Shown here one piece after another: positions 1 to 17,665 of a stretch of DNA of 64,000 bases. The stretch comes from an uncultured Candidatus Saccharibacteria bacterium (GTDB lineage: Bacteria > Patescibacteriota > Saccharimonadia > CAILAD01 > BJGX01): NCBI GenBank assembly GCA_964552475.1, contig CAZKFZ010000002.1, positions 70,160 to 134,159 on the forward strand, written 5' to 3'. Positions within the stretch are counted from its first letter, which is position 1, and each line of letters opens with the position of its first letter. Below the pieces are notes generated by a model, which did no database searches, had not been told where the DNA came from, and was given only the letters and a program-made list of their open reading frames with translations. A program made the position numbers and the translations under genes.

Positions 1-225
1 TTCAAGTCGCTTGGGGGTTACCCCGTGTTCGTTGAAGGCTCTGCTTACAGATGTTGCGATGGTGAAACCTGGCGGTACCGGCAGCCCAAGGGCAGCCATC
101 TCCGCCAAGCCCGCACCTTTGCCACCCCGTACTTTGGAGTTGCGAGTAGTGCTACTACCTTCGTTAAAAGGCAGTACTGCCTGACGGTTAGACGCCACGT
201 TTCTTCTCCTGTAGATAGTTGGATA
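1..225 (+). ncRNA. rnpB: RNase P RNA (rnpB), 3' portion, 5' end truncated by the window
   Basis: GGTGAAAC-CTGGCGGTACCGGCAGCC matches the universally conserved P10-P12 block (E. coli GGGUGAAAGGGUGCGGUAAGAGCGCACC). The upstream GGGGGTTACCCC resembles the GGGGGGGAAACCC stem. The overlapping track ORFs 25..234(+) and 45..254(-) have no coding support. Confidence 0.5.
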
Positions 226-267
226 CGGCTGTGAAATAACGATTTTATAAGCATTGTTTCACAGCCG
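226..267 (+). terminator. Perfect 11-bp inverted repeat hairpin (cggctgtgaaa / tttcacagccg) after rnpB
   Basis: Perfect 11-bp stem seen directly. No strong T-run follows, so it may instead be part of the RNA 3' structure. Confidence 0.3.
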
Positions 268-424
268 TAACCAGGTACTACAGGGTTTGTTGATATAATT
301 ACTATTTAGTTGTCAAATTTCAACAGATAAACCATTGATAAAGTTTATCGGCTATCTATATTACTACAAAACACCTTATTTGTCAATAGTTTTATAGGTC
401 TGCCAATGATTGTATAATACCTAA

Positions 425-1234
425 ATGAAACAAGCTCTAAATCAAGAAATTGTGATAATCAAGGTTGGCACTAATACCCTTGTACAAAAACTAGCTACTA
501 AAAAGGAGGTATTGGGCAAGGATGTTTTTGAGAGCATCGCTAGCCAAGTATTAATACTCAGAAAAAGCGGCACGCAGGTGATATTGGTCTCTTCGGCAGC
601 TATTACTGCCGGTATGATAGCTACAAAATTAAGCATTCGCCCGTCTGAGAGCGACTCTATTCCTGAACTTCAACGCCTTGCTAGTATTGGCTGGCGACAC
701 ATACTCAACCACTGGCAAGAAGCCTTTGGAGATTTAGTAATTGGTGAGCTACTACTTACGAAGTACGAACTAAGCCGAGATTTGCCAGAAAGAGATGAGG
801 CTCTCCGTACTATTTATACCCTATTATCACATGGTGATTTACCAATTATTAACGAGAATGACGCAATATCCCACGACGAAATAACTTTTGGTGATAACGA
901 TATGTTGGCAGCAAATTTGGCTTTGCAAATTACAAACTCACCTCTATTTGCTAGTAAAGTAAAATTGATGCTACTAACAGATGTTGACGGATTGTACAGT
1001 GATAAAAATGACGCCGACACAGTTATTAGAACGGTAGACGACATTTCTAAATACAAACACCTAGCAGATAACACCACATCTAAAAACTCAAAAGGAGGTA
1101 TAAGAAGTAAGTTAGATGCCGCCGATCTTATTACTTCTAAGGGAATAGAAATGATTATTGTAAATGGCAAAGCTCCAAATTCTATCTTACGCTCACTAAA
1201 AAGAGAAATAGGTACAACTTTTGTGGCTAAATAG
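425..1234 (+). CDS. proB: Glutamate 5-kinase / amino-acid kinase family protein (ProB-like, no PUA domain)
   Basis: N-terminus IVIIKVGTNTL matches the ProB/aspartokinase ATP-binding start. 269 aa fits the kinase core. An AAGGAGG-like sequence lies upstream. Confidence 0.55.
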   Translation: MKQALNQEIVIIKVGTNTLVQKLATKKEVLGKDVFESIASQVLILRKSGTQVILVSSAAITAGMIATKLSIRPSESDSIPELQRLASIGWRHILNHWQEAFGDLVIGELLLTKYELSRDLPERDEALRTIYTLLSHGDLPIINENDAISHDEITFGDNDMLAANLALQITNSPLFASKVKLMLLTDVDGLYSDKNDADTVIRTVDDISKYKHLADNTTSKNSKGGIRSKLDAADLITSKGIEMIIVNGKAPNSILRSLKREIGTTFVAK

Positions 1235-1242
1235 ACAAATTA

Positions 1243-1283
1243 ATGTAAATAAAAAACGGAACAATCCATACACGGTGTTCCGT
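1243..1283 (+). terminator. Rho-independent terminator (aacggaaca...tgttccgtt + T-run)
   Basis: aaaaacggaacaatccatacacggtgttccgttttttat. Stem followed by T6. Bidirectional position between proB and a minus-strand small ORF. Confidence 0.6.
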
Positions 1284-1299
1284 TTTTTATACTGTAGCC

Positions 1300-1461
1300 T
1301 TAGAAAGCTTTGGTGAGTATCCAGATTGCTCCAGCAACGGCTAGAAAGAAAAGACCTAGTCCAACTGGTGATCCCCAGCTAAACCAAGAACCCCATGAAC
1401 GCCAATGTTTTTTTGACCGTTCATACCAATCTATCTGCTCTTGTGGTGTCATTTTTGCCAT
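1300..1461 (-). CDS. Small hypothetical membrane protein (53 aa), not in the ORF track
   Basis: Minus-strand ORF MAKMTPQEQIDWYERSKKHWRSWGSWFSWGSPVGLGLFFLAVAGAIWILTKAF, with a GGAG 8 nt upstream of the ATG. Preferred over the overlapping track ORF 1310..1591(+), which has no RBS. Confidence 0.3.
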   Translation of the reverse strand: MAKMTPQEQIDWYERSKKHWRSWGSWFSWGSPVGLGLFFLAVAGAIWILTKAF

Positions 1462-1663
1462 CTCTTTGACTCCTTATTTAGTTGATATTGAGTCTCAAAA
1501 TTTATGTTTGCCAGTAAGTAAGTTGTTCTTAGGAAACTTAAGCTTACTCTATAGTCTGGGCTTAATAACAAACTTAATTATAGCAAATTAACAAGCAAAG
1601 TATAAAATTAGCTGGGCTTACTCAGTATATAGAGCTGTAGTTTAATATACTATTCTTGCTAGG

Positions 1664-1849
1664 TTAACTTGTCTTAGTGAAACCAATAGTGCCAGTAACT
1701 TGAAGCACAAGACCTATAGTTAGTAATAGCATTTGTAGACTTTGTGAATCTTTCTGCATGATTCCTGTAATGATCAAGAATATTCCTGCAGCTATTAGCA
1801 TTACGTTTAATACTTTGTTACCTAAATTTGAAGATTGTTTTTTTGCCAT
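1664..1849 (-). CDS. Small hypothetical membrane protein (61 aa)
   Basis: Two hydrophobic helices. ATG preceded by aaagaaagtATG, a weak SD. Confidence 0.3.
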   Translation of the reverse strand: MAKKQSSNLGNKVLNVMLIAAGIFLIITGIMQKDSQSLQMLLLTIGLVLQVTGTIGFTKTS

Positions 1850-2039
1850 ACTTTCTTTCTTTTAATAATGCTTATGTTTATTGTAACAAATAGTATACTT
1901 GGTAGACTATAAAAAATTCAATCTTTAATTTGGCTGAGCATACAGGTCACGAACATCGCAAACAGGGGTAATGAGACACATAAATGAGACAAATGGGACA
2001 TAAAACTAGTATGTTTTGCAATTTGAGACCCAGATTTGA

Positions 2040-3026
2040 CTACCTTGACTGAATATCCTTTAAGCTAGTGCCCCCAATGCTATCGGTGTATGGATTTGGT
2101 GTTTCAACCTCAGTTGGCTGCACTGCTACAATTGTGTAAGTTTTTGAAGGATAAAGTCGAGTCTTTTTGAAAATATTTATACATTTTAGGTCCTCTTTTT
2201 TGACGTAATGTCTGAAGTAAGCATTAGCTACTATATCGGCCATCCGTATCTCAAAATACTCCTTTGAATCATAAAAATTCATACAATTTCGAATTTCATT
2301 AGTAAAGACAGCTAGATTCTCTCTAGATTTTGGATATTTGTTAAATCGTTTTATGTATGGATGATTACTTTTCCATGTGTCTAGATGGATGAACCCGCCA
2401 CCATGATATGACAAATGCCACAAAGCGGTCCTCATTGTGTCCAACCAGTAGCGCATATGAATCGGCTTTTCTATAAATCCTTTGTCCATGCGTATCGTTA
2501 GTTCACCAAGTTCACGATCGAATCCCTTGTTTACGCTCCAAATAATAGAGTCGTTAATTGCACCAAATATCGTGCTAGCTAGAAGTTCGATTTTGAGAAG
2601 TGTTTTAAGGCTGCGCTTTGATAGCCATTTGGACATATCAACGTAAAATTGTGCAATTTCGTAATATTCTTTGCCATCTTTTCTATACTGGTCAGCGCCT
2701 TCAAGCAGTTGTCGCACATTCTTAGTTCTCTGGTTTTTAACAGTTTCGACATTGAAATCAATCAAGGGGGTAGCAAATACATGGTGCTTCGTGCCGTGGA
2801 CATTGTTGTTAAGCAAGATATTTTCAGCAAAATACATCAATTGTTCATCATTGAGCAGCCAGCCTTTTACTTCGCCGTCTTTCTTGCATTCTTCGGGTAA
2901 ATCGCTTTCCCACTTTTCAAACACACTTTTTAATTTATCGTACTTCTTGGGACGTACATACACGGCAGCAAACATGCCCATATGCTCGTCCTTGAAGCTG
3001 CCCGAGTCATCTATTCCAACAATCAT
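2040..3026 (-). CDS. Hypothetical protein, 328 aa (N-terminal MIVGIDDSGS, possibly DUF3800/RNase-H-like fold)
   Basis: Long ORF. Start overlaps the stop of the upstream gene by TAATG, indicating translational coupling. Family not recognised confidently. Confidence 0.5.
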   Translation of the reverse strand: MIVGIDDSGSFKDEHMGMFAAVYVRPKKYDKLKSVFEKWESDLPEECKKDGEVKGWLLNDEQLMYFAENILLNNNVHGTKHHVFATPLIDFNVETVKNQRTKNVRQLLEGADQYRKDGKEYYEIAQFYVDMSKWLSKRSLKTLLKIELLASTIFGAINDSIIWSVNKGFDRELGELTIRMDKGFIEKPIHMRYWLDTMRTALWHLSYHGGGFIHLDTWKSNHPYIKRFNKYPKSRENLAVFTNEIRNCMNFYDSKEYFEIRMADIVANAYFRHYVKKEDLKCINIFKKTRLYPSKTYTIVAVQPTEVETPNPYTDSIGGTSLKDIQSR

Positions 3027-3661
3027 TAGGGATATTCAGCGCCAATCACGTTTAGAAGAAGCTCAGTATTTACGTCCTTTGATTCAAGCAAGAAATCTAC
3101 TGTAATCCGTGTAACATCTGGCAAATAGCTTAAAAGCGAATCGCCGTTAACGATCCAGTTACGATTGCTTCCGTCATGCTCAAACACTTTATGAGACTTA
3201 GCTTTCTCCAAAATATCTTCTATCGATCCACTGTGCCCAGGCCTAAATTCAAAAGAAAGTACCGCTTTTCCGGGCTCTACAGTGAGCCTATGTGCCAGAT
3301 AGTCCCTGAAGCCGCTCCACACCAACTCTAAGATTTCGCCGTTGCCAGAAAGACCAAGATCTAACCCACTACTTTGGATAAACTTCATAAAATGGACGAA
3401 AGTTTCAGTTTCATTTATAGCACTGCCATCTGGATTGAACTTATCGGGTCTTTTGACGCAGTAATAAGTTTTGCCTAAGAAATTAAGTGCTGTAAAAAGA
3501 CTTAATGCTACTACAATGTTGCCACCGCCAATATTATCAGATGTCCCTTTATGTTGAAGGTTATGCTTTCTTATGTAGATGAAAGCCTTAAGATCATTTT
3601 GAACGCCCGCAATTCGGTCTAGGATATCTTCGGTACATTTTTCTACAACAGGGTCTCTCAT
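3026..3661 (-). CDS. Hypothetical protein, 211 aa
   Basis: Long ORF, first gene of the coupled pair, downstream of a 410-nt divergent intergenic region. No recognisable motifs. Confidence 0.45.
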   Translation of the reverse strand: MRDPVVEKCTEDILDRIAGVQNDLKAFIYIRKHNLQHKGTSDNIGGGNIVVALSLFTALNFLGKTYYCVKRPDKFNPDGSAINETETFVHFMKFIQSSGLDLGLSGNGEILELVWSGFRDYLAHRLTVEPGKAVLSFEFRPGHSGSIEDILEKAKSHKVFEHDGSNRNWIVNGDSLLSYLPDVTRITVDFLLESKDVNTELLLNVIGAEYP

Positions 3662-4071
3662 AAGCTAACTATAAAACTTAATATGACTGTCATCAAGCAA
3701 ACTATACAGTGGTGATTGGAATGACGACAGTTTTAGCGAGTTTGTCAGAGTTTGTTAGACTTCATTGTAAAATAGTGTTCTGATATTGCAATTGCCGAGC
3801 CTGCTTGATATTCTGAAGTTACGCATAAGCGTTACATTAACAATCTAGCTACACAGTTCCAAGGAGTTAACCGAAGCTCAACATATGAGCGCCCCCGAGG
3901 AATTGGTCATAATCTTATCCCAACGGATACGACAAGAGGTATATTTCACACTGCACCAGCAGTCGTAGGAAACGGCCCAGTTATGATTAATTCTTTAGTG
4001 GTGCTCTTTTATTTGTCTTGAATTGTGCCCAATTGAATTTGTGGTTGGTATAACTACAAAGGAGAAGAGGT

Positions 4072-5403
4072 ATGGATGCTTCAAAGCAGCTCAAGATTGA
4101 GCAAGTTAAAATATCAAAACTAAAAGCAGCAACTTACAACCCGCGCAGCTGGAGTGAGGAGACCAAAAAGCAACTGGCCGATAGCATCAGTCAGTTCGGA
4201 TTGGTAGATCCACTGCTGGTAAACGGTGCCGAGAACCGCAAAAACGTAGTAATTGGTGGGCATTTTAGACTACACATAGCTAAAGAACTCGGGTACAAAG
4301 AAGTACCTGTGGTTTATTTGGATATTCCAGACGAAGCGCGTGAGAAAGAGCTGAACCTTCGTTTAAACAAAGCGCTCGGCGAGTGGAACTGGGAAATGTT
4401 GTCCGAGTTCGACGAAACACTGCTGGCTGATGTTGGCTTTAGTAGTGAAGAGTTGGACACCATCTTCGATATTGAACTTGAGGAGTCGGATACCTTTGAT
4501 CTGCAAAAAGAACTGAAAAAACTGGATATCAAGTCAATTGAAGCCAAAAAAGGCTATGTGTACAAGCTTGGTGATTCAAGGCTAATGATTGGTGACAGTA
4601 CTGTTGATTCTGATTTCGACAAATTAATGGATGGTCAATTGGCTGATATGTGCCTGACGGACCAGCCGTATCGGCTCTCATACACTAAGGGTGGCATCCG
4701 CCAGGGTAAGCCAACTGAGGGCTTTGGTGCTAAGCGCAACCGCAAGTATTTGGAAACTGACGAGTTACCCGAAGACTTTGTCCAGCTCTGGATGGCAAAT
4801 GTTGCCAGGCATGCCAAAGATGATTTCTCTATCATTGCCTATGAAGCGTGGCACAACATGCGTGAAATGTGGGACTGCATGTCCGAGCATTGGACCATCC
4901 GGAATATGCTCATCTGGCACGTACCGAAACGTCATCAAGGTTTTGCTGCCAAGTACAAATTCTTCAGTAAGTACGACATAGCCATGGTTGGCAGCAGCGG
5001 CACCGTGCAGTACAACCACGACGAAGAACCCGATGGCTTACAGGAGGAATATGAAGCTGCACTTTACGCCACAGTCGGTAAGCCGCAATGGGAAGGCTAT
5101 CAGAAAGGCCGCAAGTATCAGCCAAGTGACTTTGTATCGTTTCCTGCAAATGATGAAAAGAGCTCCGGCCAAGGAATAATCTTTGGTACAAAGCCACTTG
5201 AAATCCTAATCCCGTACATAAAAGTACTGACAAGACGTGACGACCTGATAGTTGAGCCCTTCGGCGGGTCAGGATCGACGCTAATTGCAGCTACTATGCT
5301 CAAACGGCGTTGTTTCATCATGGAAAAATCACCAGTTTACGCTGAAGTGATTATGAAACGATGGGAAAATCTTACTGGTCTCAAGCGGGAGAAGCTGTCG
5401 TGA
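4072..5403 (+). CDS. ParB-like nuclease N-terminal domain fused to an N4/N6 DNA methyltransferase (beta-class)
   Basis: N-terminus is ParB/Srx-like (GGHFRL). LTDQPY (motif IV-like, DPPY variant) precedes EPFGGSGSTLIAA (motif I FxGxG), typical of pfam01555 phage/plasmid MTases. SD aaaggagaag upstream. Confidence 0.7.
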   Translation: MDASKQLKIEQVKISKLKAATYNPRSWSEETKKQLADSISQFGLVDPLLVNGAENRKNVVIGGHFRLHIAKELGYKEVPVVYLDIPDEAREKELNLRLNKALGEWNWEMLSEFDETLLADVGFSSEELDTIFDIELEESDTFDLQKELKKLDIKSIEAKKGYVYKLGDSRLMIGDSTVDSDFDKLMDGQLADMCLTDQPYRLSYTKGGIRQGKPTEGFGAKRNRKYLETDELPEDFVQLWMANVARHAKDDFSIIAYEAWHNMREMWDCMSEHWTIRNMLIWHVPKRHQGFAAKYKFFSKYDIAMVGSSGTVQYNHDEEPDGLQEEYEAALYATVGKPQWEGYQKGRKYQPSDFVSFPANDEKSSGQGIIFGTKPLEILIPYIKVLTRRDDLIVEPFGGSGSTLIAATMLKRRCFIMEKSPVYAEVIMKRWENLTGLKREKLS

Positions 5404-5828
5404 GCCGAAATAAGAAAGCAGATAAGAAACAATTGTTAGCGAAGCTCGCGGAAACACCGATTACTGAGGCAGCCTGTAAGAAAGTTGGGCTGCCTCGCTC
5501 AACCTATTACCGCTGGCGGAAAGAAGATCCGGATTTCGCTGAGCAGTGTGATGAAGTTATTGAGCTTAGTGTTGGCCGGATTAATGATCTGGCAGAATCA
5601 CAGCTTATCAACGCCATTAAAAACCAGAACATGTCAGCTATAACATTCTGGCTTAAGCATCATCACCGAAGCTATAGGAATCGACTGGAAGTCGATGCAC
5701 GATTACAACCGGTGCAACAAGAGCTGACACCGGAGCAAACTGAAATGGTAAATAAAGCCCTGCAGCTGGCAGGCATAACAACATTAAACGAGGAGCAAGA
5801 AAATGATGAACGATCAATTAAAGCGTAA
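5400..5828 (+). CDS. Phage terminase small subunit-like HTH protein
   Basis: GLPRSTYYRWRKEDPDF HTH typical of TerS. Probable GTG start at 5400 overlapping the upstream TGA (track ORF begins at 5361). Directly precedes and overlaps TerL. Confidence 0.55.
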   Translation: MSRNKKADKKQLLAKLAETPITEAACKKVGLPRSTYYRWRKEDPDFAEQCDEVIELSVGRINDLAESQLINAIKNQNMSAITFWLKHHHRSYRNRLEVDARLQPVQQELTPEQTEMVNKALQLAGITTLNEEQENDERSIKA

Positions 5829-7311
5829 GTTATTTACCGACAAACTAATCCGGGCAGAGGTAACGGCAAATAGCCACCTATACTTCTTCTCGACCTATTT
5901 TGCTAATTATATGGAGTATGAGATATCTGATCTGCACCGGGAGCTGTTTGCACTCACCGAGCAAGATGAAACACCACTGGCAGTCGTGATGGCGTTTCGT
6001 GGTTCTGCCAAGTCAACGATTATGACTATGAGCTACCCTATTTGGGCGGTAGTTGGTCGGCAGCAAAAGAAATTCGTGGTTATTGCTAGTCAAACACAGT
6101 ATCAGGCGCGGGTTCACTTAACTAACATCAAGCGGGAGCTGGAAAGCAACGAGTTGCTGGCAAACGATCTAGGGCCGTTTGTAGAACAGCGTGAAGAGTG
6201 GGGGTCAACCTCACTCTTCATCCCTAAGTACAACGCCCGTATCACCGCTATATCTACTGAGCAGAGCGTTCGTGGTATCCGTCACGGCTCTAAGCGTCCA
6301 GACCTGATCATTGCTGATGACGTCGAAGATGCACAGTCTGTGAAGACCCGTGAGGGCCGTAACAAGACCTTTGACTGGTATACAGGTGAGATCATCCCCG
6401 CGGGCGATATCAACACAAAAAGAATAGTTGTTGGTAACTTGCTTCACGAAGATTCGCTACTGATGCGTTTAAAGGATTTGATCGAACGTGACGAGATAGA
6501 TGGCTCTTTCATTGAATGGCCAATTGTAAAGCAAGGCAAAAGCACATGGCCGGGTAAATTTCCTGATAAAGCTGTCGTCAAGCGAATGGAGCGCAGTGTT
6601 GCCAGCCGTATCGCATGGGAGCGTGAATACATGCTTAATTTGGTTGCTGACGACGATCAGATTATCGACCGCAAAATGATCCAATACTACGACGAGCTGC
6701 CAACACAACTGCGTGGCCAATATACTCGTATTATCATTGGCGTCGACCTTGCTATATCTGAAAACGATAAAGCTGACTTTACTGCCATTCTAATACTGGA
6801 TATACGTGGCTCTGGCGACAGACAGCGGATGTATATAAGGCCAAATATCGTAAACAAGCGGCTGTCATTTCCCGATACGGTTAGCTTGCTTAAGGAGACT
6901 AGCGACAACTTTCGATACCCGAAGCTTTACATCGAACAGACAGCCTATCAAGCGGCAGTGGTACAACAACTCACTGCTGATGGGCTTGATGTGCAAGGTG
7001 TGACGCCGCACTCCGACAAGCGTTCACGACTTAATATGGTAGCTGACAAAATTCAACGTGGTGTCATCCTGTTTCCGCGTATGGGCGCAGAGGAACTAAT
7101 TACACAGTTGATTGGGTTTGGTGTAGAGAAACATGACGACCTAGTAGATGCCTTAACGACTGCTGTTCTTGAGTTTATACGTGATGATCGCCGTGGAGGC
7201 ACAGTAACAATAGGCAGAGCCTCGGATATTTTTGGTGATAGGTATCCTGGATCAAACCGTCGCAGAAGTGGCCGTGATTATTGGAATCGACGGTTAGATG
7301 ATTGGGATTAG
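5803..7311 (+). CDS. Phage terminase large subunit
   Basis: Walker A-like RGSAKST and Walker B IIADDVED in the N-terminal ATPase. C-terminal RNase-H-like nuclease (IGVDLAISEND...D). 502 aa. Confidence 0.8.
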   Translation: MMNDQLKRKLFTDKLIRAEVTANSHLYFFSTYFANYMEYEISDLHRELFALTEQDETPLAVVMAFRGSAKSTIMTMSYPIWAVVGRQQKKFVVIASQTQYQARVHLTNIKRELESNELLANDLGPFVEQREEWGSTSLFIPKYNARITAISTEQSVRGIRHGSKRPDLIIADDVEDAQSVKTREGRNKTFDWYTGEIIPAGDINTKRIVVGNLLHEDSLLMRLKDLIERDEIDGSFIEWPIVKQGKSTWPGKFPDKAVVKRMERSVASRIAWEREYMLNLVADDDQIIDRKMIQYYDELPTQLRGQYTRIIIGVDLAISENDKADFTAILILDIRGSGDRQRMYIRPNIVNKRLSFPDTVSLLKETSDNFRYPKLYIEQTAYQAAVVQQLTADGLDVQGVTPHSDKRSRLNMVADKIQRGVILFPRMGAEELITQLIGFGVEKHDDLVDALTTAVLEFIRDDRRGGTVTIGRASDIFGDRYPGSNRRRSGRDYWNRRLDDWD

Positions 7312-7338
7312 GCAACTTCTGGCAAGTGGTAGAGCTGT

Positions 7339-8118
7339 CTACTTAGCTTCGGCTTGTTTTAGTTTTACCACTTCGTCGCGGTGGTTCCAGAAAATACAGT
7401 AGTCACAGTCTGGATTTGCATCTGGGATTATATCGGCGTCCAGAGTCTGTTTCAGTTTCAAAATAGTAGGCTCGACCCACTCATCATTGCCGTCGTGTTC
7501 AATCACGTGGATGTCAAAGTTAATGCAGGCATCAAAAGACTCTTCGTTGGGCTTGCCGGTGCAGTAAACCCAGTATGCTTTGTTAGACATTTTGAGGCCG
7601 TTCTTACGTAGAAGCCATTGGTATACCTCCAACTGACGTCGATAACCATTATGATAAGATGCATCGCCTAGTTCTGTTACAGGGTCTGCTTTAGCCGTAG
7701 CCTTGTAGTCAGCAACGATATACTCACCATTACCGCTGATCCATAGGTCGTCGATAGCACCGGTGATAATCAATTTAGTAGGCTCATGTAAATACTGCAC
7801 GCCCTTGAAGTTCTCGCGCCATTCATCAATCATTTCGTGTGGTGCGGGCTTTGCATCTACGCCAAACTGATCAAGTAGAGGATGCGAACCACCGTTTTCT
7901 CGCAATGTATCAAACTCATTTTTTAGCATGGAATCTACAGCTGAGTTCAATGCAAATGGGAACCCAGGTGGACGACCAAGTCCAAGTCGACGATCAATAT
8001 AGAAGCACCGTGGACACTCCATAAATAAGTCTATTTTTGACCGTGAAAGTTTGAAAGGTTTATCGTCGGTAGGCGAGTATATATTTCTTGTTCTTTTGCC
8101 TTTGTAATATTCGCTCAT
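7339..8118 (-). CDS. Cas4-like / RecB-family PD-(D/E)XK nuclease with Cys cluster
   Basis: N-terminal KLSRSKIDLFMECPRCFY, a central D...VADYK core, QLEVYQW (QxxxY) and C-terminal CDYCIFW. Start overlaps the MTase stop by ATGA. Confidence 0.7.
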   Translation of the reverse strand: MSEYYKGKRTRNIYSPTDDKPFKLSRSKIDLFMECPRCFYIDRRLGLGRPPGFPFALNSAVDSMLKNEFDTLRENGGSHPLLDQFGVDAKPAPHEMIDEWRENFKGVQYLHEPTKLIITGAIDDLWISGNGEYIVADYKATAKADPVTELGDASYHNGYRRQLEVYQWLLRKNGLKMSNKAYWVYCTGKPNEESFDACINFDIHVIEHDGNDEWVEPTILKLKQTLDADIIPDANPDCDYCIFWNHRDEVVKLKQAEAK

Positions 8119-11100
8119 TTTGTAGAAGCTTCAATTAGTTGGAGTTCTTTATCGGTCAGATCATAAAGCTTTCCAGCTAGTATATCTATCTTGTCCCATA
8201 GTTCGCCAGCGTCATCAGTACTATTTCCTATTATTCTTTCACCAATATTGATAAGTTCATTCTTAATTTTTCCCCTCTCTGGTGATATTTTAGGTATTCG
8301 AAAAAATGTTTTCACGGAAGAAATAGGAAGCAAATAGTCTTTTTCACCTGGGCTTTTAAGCAGTAGCTCAAACATATATTTATTTATTGCAGAATTCAAT
8401 AGTAGCCAGAGATAAATAACTTCTTTTTTATTTTTGCTAGCAATAATAGCAGCCCGTCCCATTGGAAAAACAATATCTTCATCAGTAAATGAAAAGCATT
8501 TTGGATTTTTGACACTCCATACTATCTTAAATTCCTGCTCAAGAACGACATAGCCCTGACTGTTCTTCGTTAGTTGAATTGCTGCTTTATCCTTAGGGTA
8601 AAAATCTTCTGTTAGGAGAATTACATCCTTCATACCTTTTGAATTAAATAATTTATAGTATTTATTTTCATCGTCGACTGACTTCAATATTTTAGAATTA
8701 TTCAAAGTGAATCCTACATCAAAATAAAAACTTGAACCGAAGTAATTAACACTTTTTGCGTGGTTATAATAAATATCCGCTATCTCAGCAGACATATATT
8801 TCGATAATATACTTTTTTGGGGGCCGCCAAGGGTGTGTATAGACCAGTTGTTGATACTCTTAATAAGTTCTTCTTTATTAACTGGTTGATAATTTATTTT
8901 GTTCAAATGGTCTAATTTACTCTTTGTGAACAGCGCAGTATATTCGCTATTTTTTTCATTTATAACAAAGAGTACAAGACTACTAGTAGGTACAGTGGAG
9001 GTAGCCGTATCCCCCTTAAACACCATATCATCAACTACCAATAATCGATTTAGAGTTTGAGTTTCTGAAACAAGGTATCGAACAACGTCAAGGTCTTTGG
9101 CGGTTAATAGGTTTTGTGGCACGATAAATGATATGCAACCCTTAGGTTTAGCTAAGCGCGTTGCCCTAGCGAAGAAAAATGCATAGAGGTTTGGCTTAGG
9201 TGGGTATGTCTTTCTGCTTATAGGGGTACTATGAAGATTAACTCCGCAATAATTGCCAACTGATTCATCAGAGCTTTTAAGATATTTAGCAAAAGTGTCG
9301 TTTGTCTTTGAAAGTGCATTAATACTTATATAGGGCGGATTAGCAATGACGATATCAAAGCCGCCATTTTCAAATACATCTGGGAAGTTGAGCTGCCATA
9401 TAAAAAAAGGCTTTACCTTCGACATTTTGAATTTCGATAGGCGATCGATTTCTTGATGCTGATTATTCTCTTTTAGTGTTTCTTCAATTAGTTCCCATTC
9501 AGTGTCATTTATTTTTGATTGTATCTTTCTTTTTACTATTTTGTCAGTACACGCAAAATAATCCTTATGAAGTTGAATCAATAAAGTACGAGTTTTTTCA
9601 GATTTACTAAATTTATCAAAGAGGCCTTGATTGTTATTTGGTACATTCTGCCTACCTTTCAGTTGGATTAACTGCTTATTAATTGACTTTAGCTGTGACT
9701 GGAGTTGATTCTGTTTGATTGGGGTCAACATGTTAGTAGAATGTAAACTCAGATACTCTCGCTGTAAATCTGCCTGCCTTAAAACTAAATTGCTCGTTGC
9801 TTCTACATCGAAATTATGGTCGCCATAAATAAGCTCATCATCGAAGAGTTTAATTTTTCCGTACTTCTCAATTAGACTGTTGCCCTGCATAATCTTAAAA
9901 TCCAAATTAGGCAAAGGTCTAATGCCTCTATTCTTTGCGTTATCATCAATCTCTTCATCAACAATCAGAGTCAAAAAACAACGCAATCTAGAAATCTCAG
10001 TGGCAATAGGTTGTATATCAACCCCAAAAATGGATTTATTTATTATTCCAAGCTTTCGAATGTAGTTAGCACTCTTGTTATCAAATTCTCTTTTTAACTC
10101 CAGGCTCGTAATACTTTGAAGTTGCTTATTCAACCACCATTTTGCGTCAGGATCCAGTATCGATATTATGTGCAAGATTTTCTGAAGCATTCCAATCGGG
10201 AACGCCCCAGAACCACAAGCTGGATCAATGACAGTTAGTTCGCTGAGGGCACCAAGCACTAACTCCACTTCCTCTTCATTTAGTTTATTGCCAATATCGT
10301 CTTCTAAGTCATAACTTACTAACGCACTAAGTTTGCTTTCAGGGACAATTGTCATTGCTGATAAAAACTCAATTAAACTATTGCTTACCATATAGTCGAC
10401 AATTTCTCTTGGAGTATAAAAACTCCCTGTACTTTTTCTTACGGTTTCACCTGTTTCAGGATTGATTCTTGCAAGAAGATTTTCAAAAACCCGCCCTAGC
10501 ATTTCAGGATCAATCGATAGCTCAGTATCTATACTAGTATTTTCGTCTACAGTAAAATTGTATCTCTCAAGAAGATCAAATAAATCCAATAACCACTTGT
10601 CTGTGATTGTTTTTGGTGAGCTATCGTCTCCATAATAATCAATTATGTCATCGCTAAAAAGGCCCCCATTTAAGTAAGGTATTAAGTCATATGGTGCTTG
10701 CTTAAATTTAGATAGCCTAGCATCCATTTCCTTATTTAGGACCTCAAAGAACAATGGTTCCAATACGCTTTTAAAATATTCTGGCTTCCTCGAGGCTTCT
10801 AATGATAGAACCGCATTTGGAATTAATGGTATGCCTTTAATGCTCCTCTTTTCCCGTAAAAACCAACAAAATATAATTCTACCAATTAACCTAACTGCAA
10901 ATTCTTGACAATCTTCGTTGCTACCGGGGTATTTTAATTCTTTTTGAATATTTTTTGCACCAACAAGGCGGTCGTATAATCTTGCAATTTCTTTATAAAA
11001 GGCATTGTTAACAACCTCAAGTGAGAATCTTTCTTGCAGCTCTTCTAGTGTGCTTACAGCACCTTTTGCAATTAGATAATTGAATGGTGTGGCCGTTTTT

Positions 11101-11507
11101 GCTCTTGGGCCTAAAACATAAGAGTAGCGCCTTGGATTTGAGAAAATTTTTTTAATCTTACCTTTAATTTCATCTATGGAAATTGAGATATATGAAAGTC
11201 TCCATTCTTGTTCACCGGTGGTCGACACATAAGCAACTAATGCTTTGTCAATGTTGTTCTCAGCCATTAGCTTGAATGTGTCTGTCGCCAACTTAACACG
11301 CACAGAAACAGTTGCATCGTGCGTAATGACCAATACATTATTAAATCTATTGTCTAAAAAATGACCTATATTGTCAGCTTTTTTAATGAGAGACGAAGAA
11401 TGTTGAATATTTTTAGATTCTGAATATAGCTCAGTTTCAACGAGCCCTGTTACAAGTTGCTTAAATGTCTGTAAATTGAATTCCTTTGATAGATCATCTC
11501 TATTCAT
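8115..11507 (-). CDS. Large gamma-class N6-adenine DNA methyltransferase (Eco57I / type IIG / BREX-PglX-like), 1130 aa
   Basis: FYTPREIVDYMV, motif I DPACGSGAFP, motif IV VIANPPYI. Long N-terminal region and a ~400-aa C-terminal putative TRD. No obvious PD-ExK nuclease motif in the N-terminus. Confidence 0.8.
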   Translation of the reverse strand: MNRDDLSKEFNLQTFKQLVTGLVETELYSESKNIQHSSSLIKKADNIGHFLDNRFNNVLVITHDATVSVRVKLATDTFKLMAENNIDKALVAYVSTTGEQEWRLSYISISIDEIKGKIKKIFSNPRRYSYVLGPRAKTATPFNYLIAKGAVSTLEELQERFSLEVVNNAFYKEIARLYDRLVGAKNIQKELKYPGSNEDCQEFAVRLIGRIIFCWFLREKRSIKGIPLIPNAVLSLEASRKPEYFKSVLEPLFFEVLNKEMDARLSKFKQAPYDLIPYLNGGLFSDDIIDYYGDDSSPKTITDKWLLDLFDLLERYNFTVDENTSIDTELSIDPEMLGRVFENLLARINPETGETVRKSTGSFYTPREIVDYMVSNSLIEFLSAMTIVPESKLSALVSYDLEDDIGNKLNEEEVELVLGALSELTVIDPACGSGAFPIGMLQKILHIISILDPDAKWWLNKQLQSITSLELKREFDNKSANYIRKLGIINKSIFGVDIQPIATEISRLRCFLTLIVDEEIDDNAKNRGIRPLPNLDFKIMQGNSLIEKYGKIKLFDDELIYGDHNFDVEATSNLVLRQADLQREYLSLHSTNMLTPIKQNQLQSQLKSINKQLIQLKGRQNVPNNNQGLFDKFSKSEKTRTLLIQLHKDYFACTDKIVKRKIQSKINDTEWELIEETLKENNQHQEIDRLSKFKMSKVKPFFIWQLNFPDVFENGGFDIVIANPPYISINALSKTNDTFAKYLKSSDESVGNYCGVNLHSTPISRKTYPPKPNLYAFFFARATRLAKPKGCISFIVPQNLLTAKDLDVVRYLVSETQTLNRLLVVDDMVFKGDTATSTVPTSSLVLFVINEKNSEYTALFTKSKLDHLNKINYQPVNKEELIKSINNWSIHTLGGPQKSILSKYMSAEIADIYYNHAKSVNYFGSSFYFDVGFTLNNSKILKSVDDENKYYKLFNSKGMKDVILLTEDFYPKDKAAIQLTKNSQGYVVLEQEFKIVWSVKNPKCFSFTDEDIVFPMGRAAIIASKNKKEVIYLWLLLNSAINKYMFELLLKSPGEKDYLLPISSVKTFFRIPKISPERGKIKNELINIGERIIGNSTDDAGELWDKIDILAGKLYDLTDKELQLIEASTK

Positions 11508-11512
11508 AGCGC

Positions 11513-14500
11513 CTATTTAAGCTCCTCGGTAAGTATGAGCATACTAGACTGGTTTCTTGACGCATCGGCTGCACGTCGAATTTTAGCTATATATTGAATT
11601 GGTATACGTTCGCTAAGGTGCTTGTATGCCTCATCTGGGGCATCACCTATAACAATATTCCTTATTAACTTTAGCTCTGAGTCTGCGAGTGCGTCTAGGT
11701 CGTAAATGGATTCAATTAAATCCTGACAATAATTTTTCTGACTTGAACTTTCTAGTTTTTCGGAAAGAATCTTCAATTTTGCAATTGCTTCTTGACGACC
11801 TTTATCTGGGACTGATTTGTGAGTATTTGTTTTGTATAAATGATCTCGAACTTCTTGGAATAATTTATGGTAATTTTCTGATACTTCCTGTCCCTGCAGA
11901 TTTTTATCCGCTTCAAACAATTCCAGCGCTAATTCAGTGTTAATATACTCAGTTTCTTCTGAACCAACTTGCTTCAGGCAAAAGACACTTGTCTCACCAC
12001 GTTTACCATAGAGAACAACACCCTTTGTTGCATTATTACTCTTTCTTCCCACCTTAGATTTATTGACTGCTTCTTGCTCTACTAAATCTAGAATTTCTTT
12101 ATTGTGTTTGAGAGAGTTCCAAAGGTTGCGGAATTTATTAATTGAACTTTCTGATTCTTCCTGCGACTTCGCGTCGTTAAATTTATCCGAGTAGTAGGCT
12201 TTCAGCTCTTCCTCGCTCGTGAGCTTTTTAGTGTCATCACCCAATAGAGCATTAAAGATGTGTACCTTTATAGTAGATATGGATTTGGTATGTGTTTCTT
12301 CTTCACCGATTTCACTCGGGAAGAAGTTGTAAATGAATAGTTCTTCATAAACCTTTTTATTTACACGATTGATTCGCCCAATACGCTGGATCACTCGAGT
12401 CGGGTTATAGGGGATGTCGTAGTTATATACGCAATCTGCTCTGTGTAAGTTATATCCTTCTGAAATTGCGTCAGTAGCAAGTAAAATTTGAAATTGATCT
12501 TCTTGCTCATCCACTGGCAGACCGGCGTCAAAGTTTTTGGCAATAATCTTTTTGGTAGATTGATTAGCTTCTTGTCCTGAATAGGTAATTATCTTGTCTT
12601 TTAGTTCAGGATCTTTTTTGAGTTGATCTGCAATGTAATAAATTGTGTCGGTAAACTCACTGAAGACGATAACCTTACCATCAGTAGTTTTCATTTTACT
12701 TTTCAAATGTTCAACAAAAGTATCGAGCTTAGGATCGACTTCTTTTGTGCTTTCATCCTCAAACCAAAGTTTCTGTATTTGTCTTAGGATTTCTCCGTCC
12801 TTGCGTAATAGTTCTATGTAGTCAGGTTGTAAATATTTAGCCTTAATAATTCGGAAATCTTTAGAATTATTTTCCGAAAGTTGTTTTTGTAACTCTTCTA
12901 TTGGGTCGGTTTCAGACAGATTTTCATCGATTTCGATTTCATCCATCAGATCATCAGGTTCAGGTATATCAAGTTTTTTGGAAATTGGCACTCCGCCAAC
13001 TTTCTCATACCAATTGATCACTAATTGGTTCGAGATGATCATTTTATTTAGAGTGCTCCTGAAAGCATTCTTTGAGCTTTCAAATCTTCTAACCAGTAGG
13101 TGGCGCATGAACTTAGAAACGTTCGATTGACCCTGCTCAAGTCTTTGAGCAATGTCATCTTCGTCATCAAATTCTTTGGCTAGTTCCTTTTTGTAGTCTT
13201 CACGACCCTCATCAGTAAAGTACTTGGTCGGCTGGTATCGAGCAGCCAGGTAATGCTCGCCCGGAACAGCTTGATCAGATTCTGGGTAGATTGTATATAA
13301 AGTATTTTTGTAAAGATCAGTTATTTCCTGCAAAGGATATTCGATGTTGGCAGGCTCGTTAACTTTGGGAAAATGAATACCCTGAGTTTTTAAGTCTTCT
13401 CGGTACTCATCAATTCTCTCGAGATCCAATCGAGAACGTCTTATTACTGCGTCTTCAATCAAGCGGCGCAGTTCTTTAGCAAGTGCCTCAGCCTTTTGCT
13501 TGATCTTTTCAGAATCCGATTTTTTATCTTTTCGCAGTTTTGAATATTCACGAATTAGTTCACGGAATGCCATACCTAGATTTTCAGCGGTTTTTAACGT
13601 TGCGGCGCCAGGAATTTGGAAGAGCTTGATTAAGGCGTATACGTCTTTTGGGTCATTATTAAATGGGGTAGCTGAAAGTAGCAATACCTTATGACCAATT
13701 GCTAATTGGTGAATATCGGTATAATCATATGTCAATTCGTTTCTAAACCTATGAGCTTCATCGATTACAATTAATTTCGGTCGCTTGTCTTCTTTATAAT
13801 ATTGGAAACATTCATTAATTTTGCCCCGACTCCAGACTTTCCCAGTAAATCCAAATTTGTCCATGTACTCCTGCCATTGGTCGCATAAATGAGGAGGTGC
13901 AATTATAACTGTGTAAAGGTCATCACGTTTGTATAAGTTATATGCAATAGTTGAGCCGATAATAGATTTGCCTAAACCAACAACATCAGCAACAATCGCG
14001 CCGTTGTAGTCGTCAATTTTTGCTATGCCTTCCTTGATGGCGTCGATTTGATATTTAAGATTACTGTATAAGCCTCCGGTTATCTTGTAGGGCATATGGA
14101 CATCGCTGTCTTCTAAGTCGCCAAAATATTCACGAAGAACCTTAATATATACGTGATAAGGGCTAGGTAATTTATATGGCCAAGTTGATTTCTTGAATCT
14201 ATCAACAATTTCTGGAGCATCGGACCTGTCAATTAAGGTGACAGCTCTTCCGTCGTTCCATTCTTTCTCAAAAGTATCGCTCCACTCTTTAATGTAACTT
14301 GGTTCAGTAAACATATGGTTCTTTTCACCCTGTTTGCGTAATCCGCTAGTTGTCAGGTTGCTTGAACCCATGATTACTAAGCCGTTAGGGAATAAAGAGC
14401 CTATGTCTGTGTCTTTCTTGAGTCTAAATACATAATATTTAGAATGCTCTTCTTCAGATGACATTTTTATTTCTAGAGTGCCGTTTTTAAGTTTTTCGAA

Positions 14501-14866
14501 TAAGATGTCCAGAGTTTCACTGCTAGCAACCTCATCAAAATCCCTTAGGCTATTAATGCTAGCGATTGAAGTTTCAATAAAGTTATCAATTTTTTCTGAT
14601 CTGGTGGCACTTGCATAGCTACCAATTTTTGATTTGAAGCTAGTCCCGTCCTGATAGTTTTTGCCAAGTTCACTTATAACCTTAGGATCCAACTCCATAC
14701 CAACAAGAATTCTAATGGGTATGTCTTTTATGAGATCCTTAATTTCTTCGAATCCGCTAAAGAAGAAATACCCAACGGCGATGTCGATTGATTCACAGTG
14801 TGGAGCAATCTTTGCGATCTCATCAGCCAAAATTCGACTATGGTTGTCGATAATCCCACTTTGCAT
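11513..14866 (-). CDS. PLD-family nuclease domain fused to an SNF2-family helicase, 1117 aa
   Basis: N-terminal HKD motif HSKYYVF...IMGSSNLTTSGL. Helicase motifs I DVVGLGKS, II LIVIDEAHRFRN, III LLSATP, and the helicase-C block LATDAISEGYNLH...QRIGRINR. First gene of the operon, followed 5 nt later by the MTase. Confidence 0.8.
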   Translation of the reverse strand: MQSGIIDNHSRILADEIAKIAPHCESIDIAVGYFFFSGFEEIKDLIKDIPIRILVGMELDPKVISELGKNYQDGTSFKSKIGSYASATRSEKIDNFIETSIASINSLRDFDEVASSETLDILFEKLKNGTLEIKMSSEEEHSKYYVFRLKKDTDIGSLFPNGLVIMGSSNLTTSGLRKQGEKNHMFTEPSYIKEWSDTFEKEWNDGRAVTLIDRSDAPEIVDRFKKSTWPYKLPSPYHVYIKVLREYFGDLEDSDVHMPYKITGGLYSNLKYQIDAIKEGIAKIDDYNGAIVADVVGLGKSIIGSTIAYNLYKRDDLYTVIIAPPHLCDQWQEYMDKFGFTGKVWSRGKINECFQYYKEDKRPKLIVIDEAHRFRNELTYDYTDIHQLAIGHKVLLLSATPFNNDPKDVYALIKLFQIPGAATLKTAENLGMAFRELIREYSKLRKDKKSDSEKIKQKAEALAKELRRLIEDAVIRRSRLDLERIDEYREDLKTQGIHFPKVNEPANIEYPLQEITDLYKNTLYTIYPESDQAVPGEHYLAARYQPTKYFTDEGREDYKKELAKEFDDEDDIAQRLEQGQSNVSKFMRHLLVRRFESSKNAFRSTLNKMIISNQLVINWYEKVGGVPISKKLDIPEPDDLMDEIEIDENLSETDPIEELQKQLSENNSKDFRIIKAKYLQPDYIELLRKDGEILRQIQKLWFEDESTKEVDPKLDTFVEHLKSKMKTTDGKVIVFSEFTDTIYYIADQLKKDPELKDKIITYSGQEANQSTKKIIAKNFDAGLPVDEQEDQFQILLATDAISEGYNLHRADCVYNYDIPYNPTRVIQRIGRINRVNKKVYEELFIYNFFPSEIGEEETHTKSISTIKVHIFNALLGDDTKKLTSEEELKAYYSDKFNDAKSQEESESSINKFRNLWNSLKHNKEILDLVEQEAVNKSKVGRKSNNATKGVVLYGKRGETSVFCLKQVGSEETEYINTELALELFEADKNLQGQEVSENYHKLFQEVRDHLYKTNTHKSVPDKGRQEAIAKLKILSEKLESSSQKNYCQDLIESIYDLDALADSELKLIRNIVIGDAPDEAYKHLSERIPIQYIAKIRRAADASRNQSSMLILTEELK

Positions 14867-15002
14867 TTTTATTTTACAACTCCATACATAATTATCTATT
14901 CTACGCTAATTACATCTGTCATTCCATAGCTACACAATGTTTTATTTAATTTCATAATATTCCTAGCTTTTAACTAGGTTTGGCGGTACCTTGTTGCTTG
15001 CA

Positions 15003-16265
15003 ATGGAGCAAGTAACAGACATAAAATACTGCCTTTATGCTCGGAAATCGAGCGAACAAGACGAACGTCAGGCCATGTCGATAGATTCACAGCTAAAGGA
15101 GATGTTGGCGCTTGCTGCCCGTGACGGTTTGAATATAGTCGAGACCAAGCATGAAAGCCATTCAGCCAAAGAATCGGGGCGTCGGCCTGTATTTAACGAG
15201 CTGTTGGAAGATTTGAGGGCTAATAAATTCAACGGTGTACTTACATGGGCACCAGACAGGCTATCACGTAACGCTGGCGACCTAGGATCGTTAGTTGATC
15301 TAATGGACAATAATAAGCTGCAACAGATCCGCACATTCGGACAGAGCTTTCGCAATACGCCAAACGAAAAATTCTTACTAATGATTCTGTGCTCACAAGC
15401 GAAGTTAGAAAATGATAATAGAGGGGTTAATGTTAAGCGAGGTATTCGCGCCAAGTGCGAAACTGGCTGGCGACCTTGCATGCCTCCGTTAGGCTACTTT
15501 ACTAGGGGAGCAAGCGGTAAAGGTAAAGACGTTATAATTGACCAAGAGCGAGCACCTTACATCGTCCAGATGTTTGAAATGTCCGCCGAAGGCAAAGGCG
15601 GCAGACACATTCGACAGTGGTTGGAAGATAATAATGTCAAAACACGTGGCAATAAATCTATACCGTTAAGTATGATTTACCGGATATTAGGGAGTTCTTT
15701 CTACTACGGTGAGTTCGAATACCCCAGGAAAAGTGGGAAGTGGTATAAGGGTCAACACGAGCCACTTATAACCAAAGAGTTGTTTGACCAGGTGCAGATT
15801 CAGCTAACAGTACCAGTAAAGACCAAATGGGGCTCGATTCCATTCCCTTATAAGCAGTTCTTGAAATGCTACAGCTGTGGATCCAGCATTGTTGGTGAGC
15901 AGAAAACTCGGCATTATAAAAATGGCAATACGCCAACATTCACCTATTACCACTGCTCAAGACAGGTAAAGCGAGACTGCAAAGAACCATTTGCCCGCGA
16001 GCAAGACATTGCAGATGAACTAAGCTTAATGTGCAACGAATTAATTACCGACCTAACACTGCTTGAGCCAGGATTGCGCGACGCAATAGATAAGTTTACT
16101 AAGATGATGAAAGTTACTCACGAAACCTATAGCCCAGATGAAATGGTGGGCGGTTATATCAAATATGTGCTACGCGAAGGCACACTTTTCGAGAAAACTA
16201 GATTAATCCGGAACCTGAATATTAAGCTCGCATTACATGATCGCAAACTTGTAAAAATTGACTAG
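15003..16265 (+). CDS. Large serine recombinase (resolvase/integrase family)
   Basis: YARKSSEQ with the catalytic Ser near the N-terminus. C-terminal zinc-ribbon cysteines (CYSCGSS...YYHCS). The track starts at TTG 14991; ATG 15003 is more likely. Confidence 0.8.
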   Translation: MEQVTDIKYCLYARKSSEQDERQAMSIDSQLKEMLALAARDGLNIVETKHESHSAKESGRRPVFNELLEDLRANKFNGVLTWAPDRLSRNAGDLGSLVDLMDNNKLQQIRTFGQSFRNTPNEKFLLMILCSQAKLENDNRGVNVKRGIRAKCETGWRPCMPPLGYFTRGASGKGKDVIIDQERAPYIVQMFEMSAEGKGGRHIRQWLEDNNVKTRGNKSIPLSMIYRILGSSFYYGEFEYPRKSGKWYKGQHEPLITKELFDQVQIQLTVPVKTKWGSIPFPYKQFLKCYSCGSSIVGEQKTRHYKNGNTPTFTYYHCSRQVKRDCKEPFAREQDIADELSLMCNELITDLTLLEPGLRDAIDKFTKMMKVTHETYSPDEMVGGYIKYVLREGTLFEKTRLIRNLNIKLALHDRKLVKID

Positions 16266-16302
16266 TAGCTTAAAAGCTTGTGCTTGTTGCTATAATGAGG
16301 CT

Positions 16303-16743
16303 ATGAAACGCCAAACGCTGTCACGCTACGACCAAATTACCGTTGATCCTCGACACGGCGGTTACAGTGATATTAGGCTTTGGCCATGTTATATGGTGTT
16401 TAGTAGCTTAATCTTGTTTCTAGCTCCGCAGATCGGTATGTTCCTCTCAATAATGCTTGTAGGTGTTCCTTCATTTTTCATCGCTAAGAAAGTAGCGGAT
16501 ATGACGACTTCGGATGAGCCACTTGTCAGATACGACATTGAAAAGTGGGTTGATGACATGATGGCGGCAGAAGACAAAGGGTTACCGTTGCCAGCAATGG
16601 AAGCTTACGCATACATAGAGCCTATTATCGTAAAACAGAAGGTCGCCAAACAACCTGAACCGATAAGTTCTAGACCTGCTTTCAAACAGATAACGATAGC
16701 ATCTAGGATTAGAACCAAAAAACCGACTCTTCAGTCGGTTTAA
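16303..16743 (+). CDS. Hypothetical membrane protein (about 146 aa) between the recombinase and the tRNA
   Basis: ATG with a GAGG SD (track ORF begins earlier, at 16258). Two predicted TM helices. Confidence 0.35.
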   Translation: MKRQTLSRYDQITVDPRHGGYSDIRLWPCYMVFSSLILFLAPQIGMFLSIMLVGVPSFFIAKKVADMTTSDEPLVRYDIEKWVDDMMAAEDKGLPLPAMEAYAYIEPIIVKQKVAKQPEPISSRPAFKQITIASRIRTKKPTLQSV

Positions 16744-16813
16744 TAGTAAATCGATTCAGCTTCTTTATCTTGGTTAAGATTTGCACCGTACGGGTCACGT
16801 TTGGTGAAAATCG

Positions 16814-16888
16814 TGGCTGGGACGGAAGGATTCGAACCTTCGATCTCTTGAGCCAGAATCAAGCGCCTTACCACTTGGCCACGTCCCA
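16814..16888 (-). tRNA. tRNA-Gln (anticodon CTG), CCA encoded
   Basis: Hand-folded cloverleaf TGGGACG TG GCC AAGTGGTAA GGC G CTTGA TTCTGGC TCAAG AGATC GAAGG TTCGAAT CCTTC CGTCCCA G CCA. Track ORF 16740..16922(-) rejected. Confidence 0.8.
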
Positions 16889-16949
16889 TTGTTGTGGATA
16901 TATGTAATATAAGAGCAACCAACAGTCTAGCATTTTTATATATTTTTTT

Positions 16950-17612: not shown

Positions 17613-17665
17613 TTATTTATAATAACACTTTAAAACAGTTATGTTTAATTCATTATTAAATGTCT

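Follow-up and report, generated by a model that had tools for sequence, protein, structure and literature searches.

A coupled gene pair beside a terminase-like module

A 64,000-nucleotide (nt) stretch of DNA from an uncultured Candidatus Saccharibacteria bacterium (contig CAZKFZ010000002.1, positions 70,160 to 134,159), henceforth termed the window, contains two adjoining minus-strand open reading frames (ORFs), here called A and B, next to an island that resembles a phage satellite or a decayed prophage. Gene A (3661..3026) encodes a protein of 211 amino acids (aa) from a family without annotation in any library searched. Gene B (3026..2040) encodes a 328-aa protein of the DUF3800 family with the N-terminus MIVGIDDSGS; both genes start with ATG. 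DUF3800 recurs beside retrons, Cas12a2/a3, Cas13, and a dozen orphan RNA motifs, and a compact operon of just two strongly constrained genes, one of them encoding a protein partner, represents a simple object for testing such an RNase H-like module. We found no mention of a pairing between the A family and DUF3800 in the literature. Here, we describe the two genes, their relatives in other loci, and the surrounding non-coding DNA, and find that A-B is a local pairing of two genes that shuffle among defence islands rather than a conserved two-gene system.

The junction of the two genes reads CCCTAATGATT on the minus strand (...CCC TAATG ATT...), and the stop codon TAA of A and the start codon ATG of B form a TAATG overlap (3024..3028) with base 3026 in common. 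Translational coupling of the pair had been proposed in a first-pass annotation made from the letters and the ORF list; the shared base is indeed present, and the overlap is retained in two close relatives, as TAATG in locus L014 and as TGATG in locus L055. No Shine-Dalgarno-like sequence lies ahead of the ATG of B, which fits reinitiation of translation. Across the lineage formed by the window, L014, and L055, nonsynonymous divergence (pN) amounts to 0.06-0.11 for both genes (0.10-0.11 for A) at a synonymous divergence (pS) of 0.54-0.93. Synonymous sites are thus at or near saturation in all three members, yet the overlap persists. The low pN combined with near-saturated pS indicates that A and B are real genes under strong constraint and that their coupling is maintained in this lineage. 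Other stop/start overlaps are frequent within the window, for example at 8115/8118 and 5803/5828.

Across an intergenic region of 410 nt (3662-4071), the pair faces a divergently transcribed gene (4072..5403, plus strand) with Pfam matches to ParB_N and an N6_N4 DNA methyltransferase, termed ParB-MTase below. This is the first gene of a module with terS-like and terL-like genes, beside which no capsid or portal genes are located. The element (4072-16888) continues with an operon encoding a PD-(D/E)XK protein, an Eco57I-type methyltransferase, and a PLD-SNF2 helicase (7339-14866), followed by a large serine recombinase gene (14991-16265) and a tRNA-Gln gene (16814-16888). These genes bear out the earlier placement of the pair in an accessory element next to a defence operon, and the 410-nt divergent region facing ParB-MTase was likewise correctly delimited. 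No direct repeats that would delimit the element were found when 1200-2100 was compared with 16200-17700, so the "element edge" named in the first-pass annotation is not mapped.

In four independent elements (window, L055, L011, and L029), a ParB-MTase homologue is divergent from a variable block that contains A and/or B, making it the fixed neighbour of a slot for cargo genes. This organization resembles prophage and satellite defence hotspots, e.g., those of P2/P4, in that a fixed backbone, here ParB-MTase/terminase-like, adjoins a slot with changing content that includes restriction-type and orphan genes. It differs in its Patescibacteria host and its unrelated backbone, and the defence role of its cargo is putative.

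The DUF3800 protein and its unannotated partner

B matches the Pfam family DUF3800 (PF12686) over profile positions 4-149 of 149 with 21.7 bits (E 3.5e-4), a narrow margin above the cut-off of 21. Eight homologues of B at 43-49% identity carry a precomputed PF12686 assignment, and B is a new member of this known, functionally uncharacterised family. An AlphaFold (AF2) model of B built from 31 homologues is confident, with a mean predicted local distance difference test score (pLDDT) of 92.5 and a predicted TM-score (pTM) of 0.91. In a Foldseek comparison with the PDB, its top 13 matches were all RNase HII/HIII proteins (E 6e-3 to 0.3, probability 0.9-1.0, target TM-score 0.35-0.52), the best being 1eke, 3asm, 2d0a, and 1uax. 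The first-pass annotation had likened the start of B to DUF3800 and RNase H-like proteins, a guess that the profile match, the model, and the fold all support. Its further statement that neither ORF has a confident family match holds for A but not for B.

The conserved positions of B include several acidic residues. The N-terminal motif G4-I-D6-D7-S-G9, modelled on strand 2-8, is nearly invariant across the 31 homologues, some of which have D-E in place of D-D. D6 within this motif is nearly invariant, and E52 (in GEVKG), D181, and D264 (in E-I-R-M-A-D) are invariant among homologues down to 24% identity. A metal-dependent RNase H-type site would require such a set of acidic residues, and B may be a nuclease. 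The GIDDSG motif resembles the GIDEAG strand of RNase HII. Despite the shared carboxylates and the structural matches, B is distant from RNase HII/HIII, with about 10% sequence identity, TM-scores of 0.3-0.5, and a long helical insertion of about 90 residues (approximately residues 90-175) that breaks the core. Its patchy distribution and mobility also set it apart from a housekeeping enzyme.

Published DUF3800 proteins provide a second frame of reference. DUF3800 has been described as an RNase H2-like module that serves as effector of type VII retrons (VII-A2; PMC7736814), as a TPR-DUF3800 protein adjoining Cas12a2/Cas12a3 (PMC10910872, PMC13594972), and as Csx32 of the Cas13-kinase (CASK) operon (bioRxiv 10.64898/2026.08.25.746378). 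Genes for DUF3800 also neighbour 11 or more structured non-coding RNA motifs, plus drum and skipping-rope, in either orientation (PMC5737381). These sources report no demonstrated activity of any DUF3800 protein. B shares with the retron, Cas12a2/a3, and Csx32 systems the G-I-D-[DE]-S-G strand motif, the C-terminal acidic A-D motif, and a location on a mobile element or defence island; RNase HII/HIII are its nearest folds, in agreement with published descriptions of DUF3800 (PMC7736814, PMC10910872). In the QxxD motif, D264 is invariant, but an invariant R261 occupies the Q position in the subfamily of B (E259-I-R-M-A-D264); this Q is also lost in retron-linked DUF3800 (PMC7736814). B further differs from the published systems in the absence of a reverse transcriptase, TPR domain, CRISPR-Cas system, or known DUF3800 RNA motif nearby, as judged from window annotation and Rfam, and in its partner A, from a family not reported with DUF3800.

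For A, searches of the Pfam, PADLOC, PHROGs, and NCBIfam profiles returned no match. The AF2 model (pLDDT 85.9, pTM 0.85) is confident and combines six helices with a small sheet. Foldseek identified no corresponding fold, the best matches having E 0.79 in the PDB and E 0.36 in BFVD. The profile and structure searches suggested in the first-pass annotation have thus placed B among DUF3800 proteins with RNase HII/HIII folds and found no profile, PDB, or BFVD match for A. Extending the search to relatives gave the same picture: PDB sequence searches with three A-family profiles (A1, A2, and A3) yielded chance matches only, the additional domains of longer family members had no Pfam match, and a further database search with a broad A profile gained no annotated relatives. 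Among 30 close and 71 distant relatives, profile searches gave no match except two sub-threshold HEPN hits.

An exhaustive profile search nevertheless recovered a sizeable family of 173 clusters at 50% identity, nearly all of 200-280 aa and mostly from Patescibacteria. In 71 divergent members with a mean column identity of 11%, M1, D23, G47, R119, and H124 are invariant, and G45, G46, N48, F88, W115, L122, and D174 are nearly invariant. The resulting consensus D ... GGGN ... W-x3-R-[ND]-x-L-x-H ... D, in A itself D23 ... G45-G-G-N48 ... W115-x3-R119-[DN]-x-L-x-H124 ... D174, contains invariant polar residues, suggesting that A harbours a catalytic or ligand-binding site rather than being a purely structural protein.

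Partners in other loci and possible roles

To place the pair in a wider context, we collected 40 metagenome loci with relatives of B, 13 loci from species-representative genomes with relatives of A, and contigs obtained by exact look-up, and scanned all loci with both the A and the B profiles. B loci were counted if they were non-redundant and included 700 nt or more upstream of B (n = 29), and A loci if they included 1 kb or more downstream of A (n = 17). A adjoins B in 3/29 B loci and 3/17 A loci, and the same three loci are found both ways: the window plus L014 and L055, whose B proteins are 88% and 80% identical, respectively, all one lineage with at least 80% identity. The first-pass annotation had pictured the two genes as a new effector/sensor pair, with missing co-conservation as grounds for rejection. 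Co-conservation is in fact largely missing, each gene has different partners outside this lineage, and the idea of a dedicated, co-evolving system is not supported. A looser idea, with A as a swappable partner for several nuclease-type effectors and DUF3800 as an effector with several partners, stays plausible. Both gene families recur in defence islands and mobile elements, in line with the context that had been assigned to the window. Scans of IMG/VR viral contigs revealed no relatives of A or B and thus provide no direct evidence that the two are phage genes.

B has no recurrent protein partner. The upstream partners seen in 13 further loci show no relationship to A or to one another, and its homologues adjoin S24/LexA-type repressors, large serine recombinases, rve integrases, Shedu SduA_C, a type II restriction-modification pair (L150), or a GHKL ATPase (L151). 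In L007 (1407-11026), an operon with a PLD-SNF2 helicase and an Eco57I-type methylase is followed by unknown proteins of 399 aa and 290 aa and ends with a DUF3800 gene; the helicase is 27% identical to that at 11513-14866 of the window and the methylase 34% identical to that at 8115-11507. That a PLD-SNF2/Eco57I restriction-like system occurs together with DUF3800 a second time may be more than chance. Within the A-B lineage, an S24/LexA-type repressor gene lies directly upstream of A-B in the same direction in L055 (5310-5978) and L014 (23-412), and a tblastn search of the window detected no trace of it.

The loci with A come from organisms labelled mostly as Candidatus Saccharibacteria or Patescibacteria. 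A lies in hsdM-hsdS-A-hsdR operons in L062-L064, where it overlaps hsdR by 4 nt, is the last gene of the type I restriction-modification operons of L061 and L065, and follows a DEAD/ResIII helicase gene in L060. An Mrr-type endonuclease (Mrr_cat) follows A at +3 nt in L058, A overlaps the gene for a HEPN_AbiU2 protein by 4 nt in L149, and a 243-aa protein with a hydrophobic, membrane-type segment is encoded at +9/10 nt after A in L008 and L059. Together, A is tightly coupled (gap of at most 10 nt or overlap) to five types of downstream partner: DUF3800, HsdR, Mrr_cat, HEPN_AbiU2, and the 243-aa membrane-type protein. The A family is repeatedly wired into restriction-modification operons of Patescibacteria, a phylum from which, to our knowledge, few defence systems are known, and it is a reasonable candidate for a new defence accessory.

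Since DUF3800 is attached to many partners, both in the literature and here, and A to many effector-like proteins, we tentatively favour, with a probability of roughly 40%, the interpretation that A-B is a modular cassette of the abortive-infection type, carried as cargo of the element, in which A is an interchangeable partner or regulator and B a nuclease effector. A and B would move independently among defence islands and would have been joined here in the variable cargo slot, which is divergent from the ParB-methyltransferase/terminase module; the element itself would be integrative and phage-satellite-like, in a host of the Saccharibacteria type. Transcription of both genes would run leftward from a promoter next to the conserved tandem repeat, taken as an operator, and translation of B by termination-reinitiation at the TAATG overlap would fix the A:B ratio. 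A might then have a sensing, licensing, or restraining role towards the effector, and B might act on RNA, RNA:DNA hybrids, or invading DNA. The outcome would be abortive-infection-type or anti-mobile-element defence, to the benefit of element and host. A bolder version, which we consider unlikely, is that A founds a so far undescribed family of small partner proteins, common in Patescibacteria, for interchangeable nuclease or membrane effectors (HsdR, Mrr, AbiU2-HEPN, DUF3800), acting as a common infection sensor or licensing switch through its D/GGGN/R-x4-H/D site. If true, pairing with the protein A would open the function of DUF3800 in this locus to a direct test.

Several findings weigh against the cassette interpretation. 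The pair occurs in three of 29 B loci and three of 17 A loci, all from a single lineage, so A and B can generally do without each other. Homologues of A in L010, L011, L057, and L148 have no obvious adjacent effector, and many B homologues look solitary. No model of PADLOC-DB v2 is matched by A or B at E<=1. The defence role is assigned by association within metagenome-assembled genomes, the source of all contexts considered here, and because A has no recognisable fold or family, its role in particular is guesswork.

The confinement to one lineage, together with the finding that both genes occur alone or beside many other neighbours, would also fit A and B being unrelated, self-sufficient defence or accessory genes that each act singly and were juxtaposed in one lineage, with the 1-nt overlap reflecting genome compaction and not a functional dependence. 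The frequency of stop/start overlaps in the window agrees with this explanation, which we regard as somewhat less likely than the cassette: the overlap is retained in all three lineage members despite saturated synonymous sites, and A is equally tightly coupled to other effector-like genes elsewhere, suggesting that it habitually works with a downstream partner. A further explanation starts from the conserved motif of A. R-x4-H is the hallmark of HEPN RNases, and prrC occupies the position between hsdS and hsdR in the EcoprrI operon. A might thus be a HEPN-type RNase toxin resembling PrrC, silenced by its neighbour, be it B or a type I complex, and released on infection. R119 and H124 fit the R-x4-6-H pattern and are invariant within W-x3-R-[ND]-x-L-x-H in 71 divergent members; A homologues lie at the X of hsdM-hsdS-X-hsdR in L062-L064 and come last in the type I operons of L061 and L065, a setting shared with PrrC/RloC anticodon nucleases; two of the 71 members show faint Pfam HEPN matches (RiboL-PSP 0.024 and Apea 0.098, both sub-threshold); and a HEPN_AbiU2 protein is the coupled neighbour in L149. 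A short R-x4-H match is weak evidence by itself, however, and the model puts the motif at the C-terminus of a helix, not at its start. Pfam gave no HEPN match for A or 29 close relatives, hhalign of the A family with the AbiU2-HEPN neighbour of L149 reached a probability of 0.1%, and no HEPN protein appeared among the 41 PDB matches listed for the confident A model (best E 0.79), although small helical bundles are hard for Foldseek and the exclusion is not firm. Unlike PrrC/RloC, A has only 211 aa with no ABC-type ATPase/NTPase domain in four libraries and no detectable homology, and the window copy has no adjacent type I system, its neighbours being DUF3800 and ParB-MTase. HEPN membership of A is unproven, and we judge the toxin explanation to be quite improbable.

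We give even less credence to the idea that the cassette serves the element rather than defence, with B as an RNase H-type replication or RNA-processing enzyme, perhaps acting with a nearby non-coding RNA, and A as its regulator. DUF3800 genes are tied to many structured non-coding RNAs in either orientation (PMC5737381), and the non-coding DNA described below offers possible counterparts: a stable, strand-specific RNA at 3884-4012 (z = -5.06), 220 nt from the cassette, and a conserved element of about 70 nt after B in three loci. In addition, B homologues directly adjoin tRNA genes or LOOT RNA in several loci and often lie beside recombinases and repressors. Against this stand the absence of any Rfam DUF3800-type motif from the window and 32 related loci, the lack of a homologue of RNA 3884-4012, and the lack of similarity between the intergenic region of the window and that of a relative that carries the pair (L055). 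The approximately 70-nt element has no conserved fold, and adjacency to tRNA genes may only mark integration sites.

The control region and other non-coding elements

The first-pass annotation pointed to an imperfect palindrome and a tandem near-repeat in the 410-nt region. The palindrome exists, with core arms ACTGTCATC at 3686-3694 and GACGACAGT at 3723-3731 that are complementary at 8/9 positions, and thus lies about 9 nt further left than first described. A repeat search extends it to arms of 22 nt with 73% complementarity (3674..3743), and a plus-strand hairpin at 3672-3745 folds with z = -3.15. In 33% of dinucleotide-preserving shuffles, inverted repeats of equal quality occur just as often, so the palindrome does not exceed chance. 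The tandem near-repeat AGTTTGTCAG/AGTTTGTTAG, in contrast to this palindrome, was confirmed as real at 3739..3758: none of 500 shuffles reached it (mean 0.006), and the stretch is identical at 25/26 nt in L023 (1380-1405), an unrelated contig in which no A-B cassette follows. It is located just downstream of a promoter-like site facing A on the minus strand (TTGCAA-16-TACAAT, 3764..3791), identified by a consensus scan in which the number of sites in the region was not above chance. The -35 of this putative promoter lies inside a palindromic ATTGCAAT box, 22 nt from the tandem repeat, and the box is also conserved in L023. The tandem repeat is likely an operator-type protein-binding site of the element backbone.

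The right part of the region encodes a predicted structured RNA on the plus strand (3884..4012; free energy -45.8 kcal/mol, z = -5.06, 0/200 shuffles). It comprises a 17-bp stem with G.U pairs, an inner two-hairpin junction, and a terminator-like end with a GC stem and U-tract, located 60 nt before the ParB-MTase start codon; on the minus strand, a slightly longer stretch (3872-4020) reaches z = -1.39. The RNA has no Rfam match and no homologue in the collected loci or phage records, two 18-mer matches in IMG/VR being attributable to chance. One possible role is that of a leader terminator for the terminase-like operon, another that of a non-coding RNA of the kind found near DUF3800 genes. Rfam scans of window positions 1-8000 (E<=10), of the whole window (gathering score), and of the 32 related loci detected no DUF3800-type motif. 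The association of DUF3800 genes with the motifs DUF3800-I to XI, drum, and skipping-rope is frequent but not obligatory.

A second non-coding element lies on the other side of the cassette (1930..2001, minus strand), about 40 nt after the stop codon of B. Its approximately 70 nt contain GTCYCATTT repeats and ACCTGTATGCTCAGCCAA and are shared with L014 (2104-2162; B 88% identical) and L023 (1120-1190; B 46% identical), where the element is inverted relative to B. The element is better conserved than the adjoining protein. Neither strand yields a consensus RNA fold, which makes a DNA site, such as a recombinase site, an att half-site, or a protein-binding site, more likely. Matches to its core motif in IMG/VR fell on 79 unrelated repeat-containing contigs and were discarded.

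Structured RNA genes occur near several DUF3800 homologues. tRNA genes are located 20-300 nt from them in L005 (11045-11116), L018 (2488-2570), L017 (2198-2270), and L015 (3706-3777), and in L035 a LOOT RNA (RF03000, 74.8 bits; 7225-7359) follows the homologue at a distance of 286 nt. Such adjacency may mark integration sites or reflect a link to RNA.

An amino-acid kinase family gene flanks the A cassette both in the window (425-1234) and in L149 (4742-5623), where A is coupled to HEPN_AbiU2, which suggests a recurrent insertion hotspot beside this gene. Between the kinase gene and the cassette of the window, downstream of B, are two small minus-strand ORFs (1300-1461, 53 aa, and 1664-1849, 61 aa) with hydrophobic, membrane-type segments. 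At 207-285, the window contains a long, near-perfect hairpin that gave sub-threshold microRNA-precursor matches on both strands in a permissive Rfam scan and is probably an intergenic terminator or palindrome.

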